A stretch of 64,000 bases of DNA from Escherichia coli (GTDB taxonomy: Bacteria; Pseudomonadota; Gammaproteobacteria; Enterobacterales; Enterobacteriaceae). The notes under the pieces are model-generated. The model saw only the letters and a program-made list of their open reading frames with translations, did not search any database and was not told where the DNA came from. Of the stretch, positions 10,738 through 11,629 are shown piece by piece. The stretch lies in the NCBI RefSeq assembly GCF_024700885.2, contig NZ_CP117016.1, one strand, 5' to 3'. The position numbers and the translations under genes were made by a program. Each line of letters begins with the position of its first letter. The stretch's first letter is position 1.

Positions 10738-11629
10738 TGACTCGTCCCGTCACGATCTTCAGCAATATGCTGAAGCATCGTGGCGGTATAACGATGATTT
10801 CTGATTGAATAAAGATATTCCTGCATATACATCGGCCTGTGCGGCGCATCAAAATATTTCAGCGTTGCCGGATTCACCAGTCGCCAGGCAAAATGCGGGA
10901 TCACCGTCAGAAAATGTCCGCGCTCTACGGCGCTGATTTTGGCCATAAAACTGTAGGGACGATAAATAATGGTGGGATTGATCCCACAAGGTCGCATATT
11001 CGCATCAATCATTGCTTCGAAGTTGGCCCGGTTCTGAAAGCGCATTTGTAGCCAGGGCAGCTCCTGAAGCAACTCTTGCTCTTGACGCTCTTCATAACGC
11101 GAGAAACGAGAAAGCCCAATCGCAGCGGCGGTAGTTCACTGATAGTCAGGTTTTCCAGTTCCTGAACTCGTGCAGATACATGCTGTGGGGAGATAATAAA
11201 ATCTAACTGGCGGTCAAAAAGATTATCGATAACGCCGTTTTCGCTGAACTCAACTGGCTGGGCGGTCACGCCTTCATACTTATCTCCGAGACTAATCAAC
11301 TGATCGAAAATAATTGTCGGATAAGTATTATCTATGCCAATCACAATTTCTCGTGAACGACGCCCTGAGTTATGGATTTCATTATCAATCGCAGAAAGTC
11401 GTTGATAAACCGGGAACAGTTTTTGATACAGTTCCTGTCCGGCTTTATTGAGGCTGATATTATTATCTTTGCGGGTAAATAGCGTATAGCCAATTTGTTC
11501 TTCCAGCGCGGCAATGCTTTTACCAAATGGCGAAGCCGTCATATGGATTTTTTCTGCCGCCCGGGCAATATTATTGGTTTGCGCTAATAAAATGAAATTG
11601 CGCATCTTTTTCGAAATAAAAATGTCCAT
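10734..11629 (-). pseudogene. ygfI: LysR-family regulator ygfI, apparently frameshifted
   Basis: N-terminal HTH half (track ORF 11009..11629) and C-terminal half (10734..11072) lie in different frames and overlap; a 1-nt deletion near 11097-11101 would restore one frame. Confidence 0.7.

Follow-up and report, generated by a model that had tools for sequence, protein, structure and literature searches.

Between yggE and scpC, Escherichia coli strain MLI114 carries the gene of a LysR-type regulator whose reading frame is split in two. This raises the question whether a base has really been lost from the chromosome or was only dropped from the assembly, and what is left of the regulator. The window analyzed here is the whole stretch of 64,000 nucleotides, which a 25-kb query placed at 990504..1054503 of the MLI114 chromosome (NZ_CP117013.1), in reverse complement. 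An earlier note, made from the letters of this stretch, had proposed that ygfI is interrupted by a 1-nt deletion between 11090 and 11105, with the helix-turn-helix half and the effector half in different frames that overlap by about 64 nt. In the ORF listing the two minus-strand ORFs of 206 and 112 amino acids indeed lie in different frames and share 64 nt, and, aligned against the intact allele of strain 118UI, the window lacks one C. On the coding strand the window reads TCT CGC GTT ATG AAG at the junction, letter for letter as the note had given it, where 118UI has TCT CGC CGT TAT GAA (the wider stretch of the intact allele is TTT CTC GTT TCT CGC CGT TAT GAA GAG). On the plus strand the intact context aacGGcgag has become aacGcgag, i.e., GG is reduced to a single G, and the survivor lies at 11099, inside the proposed interval. 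The srsR (ygfI) gene of MLI114 is broken by the loss of one C from a CC doublet.

The identity of the gene, ygfI and now srsR, was confirmed by repairing the frame. When one base is put back, the sequence reads ...SRRYEERQEQELLQELPWLQ..., as had been predicted together with a length of roughly 298 amino acids, and the translation is exactly the 298-aa protein WP_000350807.1, "LysR family transcriptional regulator SrsR". This widespread allele, 100% identical to the repaired window sequence, is also the product of the 897-nt intact orthologue of 118UI (298 aa). The position of srsR between yggE and scpC is conserved in MLI114, 118UI, JNE21-009, GN06156, 1190 and others. SrsR of K-12 (YgfI, also proposed as DhfA; b2921) occupies the same locus with the same synteny, yggE - srsR - scpC with srsR and scpC convergent, and its architecture of HTH_1 plus LysR_substrate is that of the repaired window gene. 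Unlike in K-12, however, the frame in the window is broken at codon 177/178, and native sequence is confined to the N-terminal 177 residues. The mutant product follows SrsR through residue 177, continues with VMKSVKSKSCFRSCPGYKCAFRTGPTSKQ (29 unrelated residues) and then stops. The TTG that is taken as the start of the 112-aa ORF is created by a SNP at 11072, and the 3' ends of scpC and srsR overlap by 4 nt. In NZ_CP117013.1 PGAP labels the locus [quoted passage not shown] and sets the pseudogene flag. All coordinates are collected in Table 1.

Table 1. Features of the srsR locus of MLI114, in positions of the window.
Feature	Position	Strand	Remark
srsR (ygfI) pseudogene, whole former coding region	10734..11629	-	896 nt (intact gene 897 nt)
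1-nt deletion site	11099..11100	-	CGC CGT with one C lost, codon 177/178; alignment with intact alleles
ORF of the truncated product (206 aa, ATG start)	11009..11629	-	ORF listing
177 native residues of the truncated product	11099..11629	-	
29-residue out-of-frame tail of the truncated product	11012..11098	-	
Premature stop codon of the truncated product	11009..11011	-	
LysR-type winged helix-turn-helix, residues 8-65, intact	11435..11608	-	PF00126 HTH_1, E 7.3e-16, 58.3 bits
Stranded C-terminal part (former residues 178-298 and stop), frame differs from that of the start	10734..11098	-	
Second ORF, 112 aa, TTG start	10734..11072	-	ORF listing
Alternative C-terminal ORF, 103 aa, ATG at 11045	within 10734..11098	-	Gene callers
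Synonymous SNP	11072	-	CTG to TTG (intact frame), AGC to AGT (shifted frame)
scpC	9259..10737	+	Convergent neighbor, intact, unaffected; WP_000449941.1

The distribution of the domains over the two halves agrees with the proposal. In the 206-aa ORF the LysR helix-turn-helix (PF00126) scores 58.3 bits against a cutoff of 26.6 bits, and the Pfam search gave no match to the effector-binding domain PF03466 in this ORF. In the intact allele PF03466 reaches 46.6 bits and spans residues 89-283, of which the truncation at residue 177 takes away about 54%. The stranded C-terminal ORF scores 27.7 bits for PF03466, just below the 28-bit cutoff, and aligns to profile positions 101-195, about half of the domain. 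The complete effector-binding domain that characterizes LysR-type regulators is not found on one polypeptide. Judged by its domain content, the locus is a broken member of this family, a pseudogene.

To judge whether the missing base is real, the assemblies and their relatives were compared. The MLI114 assembly was made with Trycycler from Nanopore R9.4.1 reads, followed by medaka and by Illumina polishing via Polypolish (PMC10198576). JNE21-009, an O166:H15 outbreak strain from Japan, was assembled in another laboratory from R10.4.1 and Illumina reads with Polypolish and PyPolca (PMC12613895); it has the same deletion and its srsR is likewise flagged as frameshifted by PGAP. Among 5,426 complete E. 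coli genomes, srsR is present at 80% coverage or more in 5,405. A 1,001-nt query of the locus finds a match in 5,425 of them and is 100% identical only in MLI114, the other top matches spanning 1,002 nt in their own records. With a 40-nt junction query, in which each 28-nt seed must span the deletion so that the intact allele cannot seed a match, exactly two genomes were recovered, MLI114 and JNE21-009. A 57-nt junction query differs at one position from about 2,250 genomes, and among the matches listed the extra base is present; three records reached 99% or more, two of them full-length 100% matches and the third probably a partial match. The comparison with ygfI of other E. coli genomes, which the earlier note had suggested as a check, shows the gene intact in nearly all other genomes.

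Outside the complete genomes the allele is found more often. The exact 206-aa product occurs in 355 indexed blocks of the public assembly collection, where it was seen on 253 contigs (NCBI, ENA, Logan, JGI), and its entries include GAB1674688.1 in GenBank (strain JNE12002) and STP43555.1 (GCA_900450185.1). All 11 carrier loci that were fetched have the identical 40-nt junction. One of them, the metagenome contig L019 (ERZ27246295, k119_2921), is 100% identical to the window from 1009 to 21629 (20.6 kb), a stretch that includes the srsR deletion, the SNP at 11072 and the 5-bp duplication described below. Intact orthologues therefore dominate the species, and the deletion is reproduced in independently sequenced relatives.

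The genomic background of the carriers was compared by counting SNPs in 2-kb bins over the window. MLI114 belongs to ST-349 (supplementary table, PMC10198576), and O166:H15 corresponds to ST349 of phylogroup D (PMC7500659). Against strain 1190, MLI114 shows virtually no differences between about 32 kb and 58 kb, and JNE21-009 shows none at 4-8 kb and at 26-38 kb. Since these three strains differ by 0-1 SNP per 2 kb over long tracts, they have a common backbone. This backbone is rare (about 7 of the 5,426 complete genomes). Five genomes that share it, as defined by window 29.7-38.6 kb (1190, F344, 23CRST032, NA3664 and GmM066), all have an intact srsR on the 1190-type haplotype, whose srsR is marked by about 12 diagnostic SNPs. 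From about 8 to 24.5 kb, MLI114 and JNE21-009 have a different haplotype, which matches that of GN06156 and many further genomes almost exactly and differs from 1190 by 1-3% and by other accessory genes. The GN06156-like tract extends from about 7.7-8.2 kb to 25.1 kb in JNE21-009, and from before position 1 to beyond 26.2 kb in MLI114; in both strains a small patch of backbone alleles lies inside it. The sister strains MLI121 (14 cgMLST alleles from MLI114), JNE070796 and JNE21-003, with which the deletion could be dated, are absent from the collection of 5,426 complete genomes, where no other record came close to 100%.

In the carriers examined, the core between about 10 and 21.6 kb is almost invariant (0-3 SNPs), whereas the left flanks break at different places, and carrier L020 has a K-12-like argP-rpiA arrangement on this side. 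Because the core haplotype is nearly identical and the left flanks have been recombined differently, a single origin of the deletion on a GN06156-like haplotype is the most parsimonious reading. The tract ends at different points in MLI114 and JNE21-009, on the left as well as on the right, which calls for at least one more recombination event. Such boundaries would fit one shared import as well as separate imports into the two strains. The SNP at 11072 is T in the window, in L019 and in L016 (GCA_900450185.1), and C in JNE21-009, in carriers L012-L015, L017, L018 and L020-L022 and in the intact alleles; on this distribution it is a marker of the MLI114 sub-lineage. L016 is the closest isolate relative found at the srsR locus. 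At the equivalent of window position ~13824 it has an extra A that splits the DctP-family gene into ORFs of 136 and 161 amino acids, either a pseudogene or an assembly error.

The same comparison revealed further features of the window. From 1 to 58600 it is a recombination mosaic, near-identical to GN06156-like genomes from 1 to about 26.3 kb, then of a third haplotype up to about 30.5 kb, and identical to the strain 1190 backbone beyond that point. The patch of backbone alleles inside the imported tract of MLI114 consists of 4 SNPs at 24584-24599. Genes for a TRAP-transporter substrate-binding protein of the DctP family (13381-14424, between argO and mscS) and for a PPC-domain protein with an ECF transporter cluster (~19600-22700, between epd and yggC) are present in the haplotype of the window, GN06156 and JNE21-009 and missing from the 1190-type haplotype. 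In the intergenic region from a prohibitin-family gene to tkt (~29287-29656), a direct repeat of about 174 bp has two copies in the window and in GN06156 (393-bp spacer) and one copy in JNE21-009 and 1190 (219-bp spacer).

Two other reading frames of the window are altered as well. At 1886-1895 a 5-bp tandem duplication (GCGGA GCGGA) shifts the frame of an FMN-dependent NADH-azoreductase gene (1841..2475, plus strand) after codon 18; PGAP gives a 5'-shortened CDS (1915..2475, 186 aa compared with 209 aa in relatives) and no pseudogene label. The duplication is absent from JNE21-009, GN06156 and most carriers of the srsR deletion. As it is also found in the independent contig L019, it is real and marks the MLI114 sub-lineage. 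In yqgD (37149..37399, minus strand) the run at 37272-37278 is A7 in the window and A8 in JNE21-009 and GN06156; the gene is flagged as frameshifted in MLI114 and annotated as intact in JNE21-009, GN06156, 1190 and 23CRST032. Either the A7 run has truly changed in this strain, or it is a homopolymer error left in the assembly.

With these data the explanations for the split of srsR can be weighed. The earlier note had left room for a homopolymer-type error; in that case the Nanopore consensus would have skipped a base that the cell has. R9.4.1 flow cells, from which the long reads of MLI114 come, are prone to indels, and the yqgD run shows that the window holds another difference of a single base in a run. 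However, the srsR site is a GG doublet and not a homopolymer, no Dam or Dcm motif was found at it, and the assembly was polished with Illumina reads. The deletion recurs in the R10.4.1 plus Illumina assembly of JNE21-009 from another laboratory, the truncated product is found on 253 further contigs, some of them from short-read Logan or metagenome assemblies, and L019 agrees with the window without a single mismatch. A systematic error would also be expected to turn up often among the roughly 2,250 genomes that have the same local sequence, yet the deletion is in only two genomes. The doublet site, the short-read polishing and the recurrence in independent assemblies lead us to reject a sequencing error, which is effectively refuted and to which we assign a negligible chance; by all these comparisons the deletion is real and heritable. 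Searching independent public assemblies for the exact truncated protein and for the junction can hence decide, without recourse to reads, whether a suspected frameshift is an error. If the mutation is real, the same C could have been lost several times, at a hot spot or under repeated selection against SrsR, and the differing tract boundaries of MLI114 and JNE21-009, the several left flanks and the changed gene arrangement in L020 would fit such a history. But all carriers examined lie on one core haplotype, both carriers among the complete genomes sit on the same rare backbone, no carrier on another srsR haplotype was found in the 5,426 complete genomes, and a CC doublet is a weak substrate for slippage, so that recurrent loss is very unlikely and a single deletion is preferred.

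A deletion that is real may still leave a working protein, either by recoding or by activity of the truncate. Programmed ribosomal frameshifting or transcriptional slippage could restore full-length SrsR, and for this speaks that both halves are still open, and nothing further. It would require a +1 shift at CUC GCG UUA UGA, where neither a slippery heptamer nor a homopolymer run is found, and the split arrangement is not conserved, being limited to 2 of the 5,426 complete genomes; recoding is therefore hardly conceivable. Separate translation of the C-terminal half was rejected as well, as this half has only weak start signals: the best start is the ATG at 11045 with AGGAG 15 nt upstream, which is poor spacing, and half a domain is unlikely to fold. 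The truncated 206-aa protein itself could be active as an effector-blind regulator that only binds DNA, its function being changed and not removed. The HTH domain and the linker region are intact, and many isolates have kept the allele without any change to the encoded protein. DNA-binding domains of LysR-type proteins, when isolated together with their linker helix, can dimerize and bind DNA in vitro, and the fragment of MLI114 could still bind DNA, too. However, a young allele explains the unchanged sequence equally well, given how little the core haplotype varies, and an effector domain cut in half and followed by a 29-residue nonsense tail would likely be misfolded and degraded. SrsR is moreover an activator, a role for which members of this family normally require the complete tetramer. 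An active truncate is for these reasons unlikely. In LysR-type regulators the effector-binding domain is needed for the assembly of dimers and tetramers and for the response to the effector, and hence SrsR function has most likely been lost in MLI114. The statement that the strain has lost the regulator is borne out to this extent, with a frameshift that recurs in independent assemblies and an effector domain that is cut.

Taken together, the split of srsR very probably reflects a genuine, heritable 1-nt deletion that arose once, most likely abolished SrsR function and circulates in E. coli related to ST349/O166:H15. One C of the CC doublet at codon 177/178 was lost, probably by a spontaneous -1 replication error, shifting the frame after Arg177 into 29 unrelated codons and a stop. 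The predicted 206-aa product would keep the HTH and the linker and lack about 54% of the effector-binding domain, and from this architecture loss of SrsR function is the most likely outcome. The allele presumably arose once on a GN06156-like local haplotype and would since have circulated in ST349/O166:H15-related E. coli, its flanks being reshuffled by homologous recombination. MLI114 belongs to a sub-lineage that has gained the synonymous SNP at 11072 and the 5-bp duplication in the nearby azoreductase gene.

Compared with known systems, the case resembles ordinary lineage-specific frameshift pseudogenes of E. coli, where a single-base indel hits a conserved core gene that is intact in nearly all other genomes, and where the defect is clonally inherited and flagged by PGAP. 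The srsR allele differs from these in that recombination has carried it onto several flanking haplotypes; otherwise there is no essential difference. Phase-variable contingency genes are likewise switched on and off by 1-nt indels. However, the srsR indel affects a CC doublet, with no homopolymer or short tandem repeat at the site; nothing points to switching back and forth, and the carriers examined share one haplotype.

What the cell would lose can be read from K-12. There SrsR is an activator of its targets whose induction in stationary phase is about 25-fold; it binds ten loci, most strongly yfdO/yfdP and also bluR, cdgI, dinJ, paa genes and fuc genes, through the experimentally defined SrsR box TCAGATTTTGC (PMC9181523). 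When srsR is deleted in K-12, biofilm formation increases and survival of H2O2 falls about sevenfold (PMC9181523). In a study by ChIP-exo and RNA-seq, YgfI is reported to activate dhaKLM and fermentation genes, and the mutant to have a growth defect on glycerol (bioRxiv 10.1101/2021.12.22.473864). Regulation of fucAO by SrsR was not reproduced (PMC11011485). The earlier note had called the gene the regulator adjacent to the scp operon. It does adjoin scpC, but a regulatory link between srsR and scp was rejected as unsupported: srsR and scpC are convergent, and the targets from gSELEX, ChIP-exo and RNA-seq include none of the scp genes. As no published SrsR target lies in the scp operon, adjacency should not be taken as regulation. 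A full-text literature search found no published discussion of natural ygfI/srsR inactivation.

The frameshift as such is already known, as the pseudogene is flagged by PGAP and the truncated product is in GenBank, and it is an ordinary lineage-specific pseudogene of a named and characterized core-genome regulator. The ST349/O166:H15 lineage is associated with atypical diarrhoeagenic and enteroaggregative E. coli. That the allele sits on several flanking haplotypes could reflect selection for the srsR deletion, although we consider it doubtful that the loss is adaptive in ST349/O166:H15 rather than neutral decay. If it were adaptive, this natural null allele could favor gut colonization or persistence, given that deletion of srsR raises biofilm formation in K-12 (PMC9181523). 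For MLI114 and a sub-lineage of ST349/O166:H15 the finding would mean life without a functional copy of a recently characterized stationary-phase regulator, with little import beyond correct annotation. Extrapolation of the K-12 network to these clinical strains needs care where biofilm, peroxide tolerance and the use of dihydroxyacetone and glycerol are concerned.
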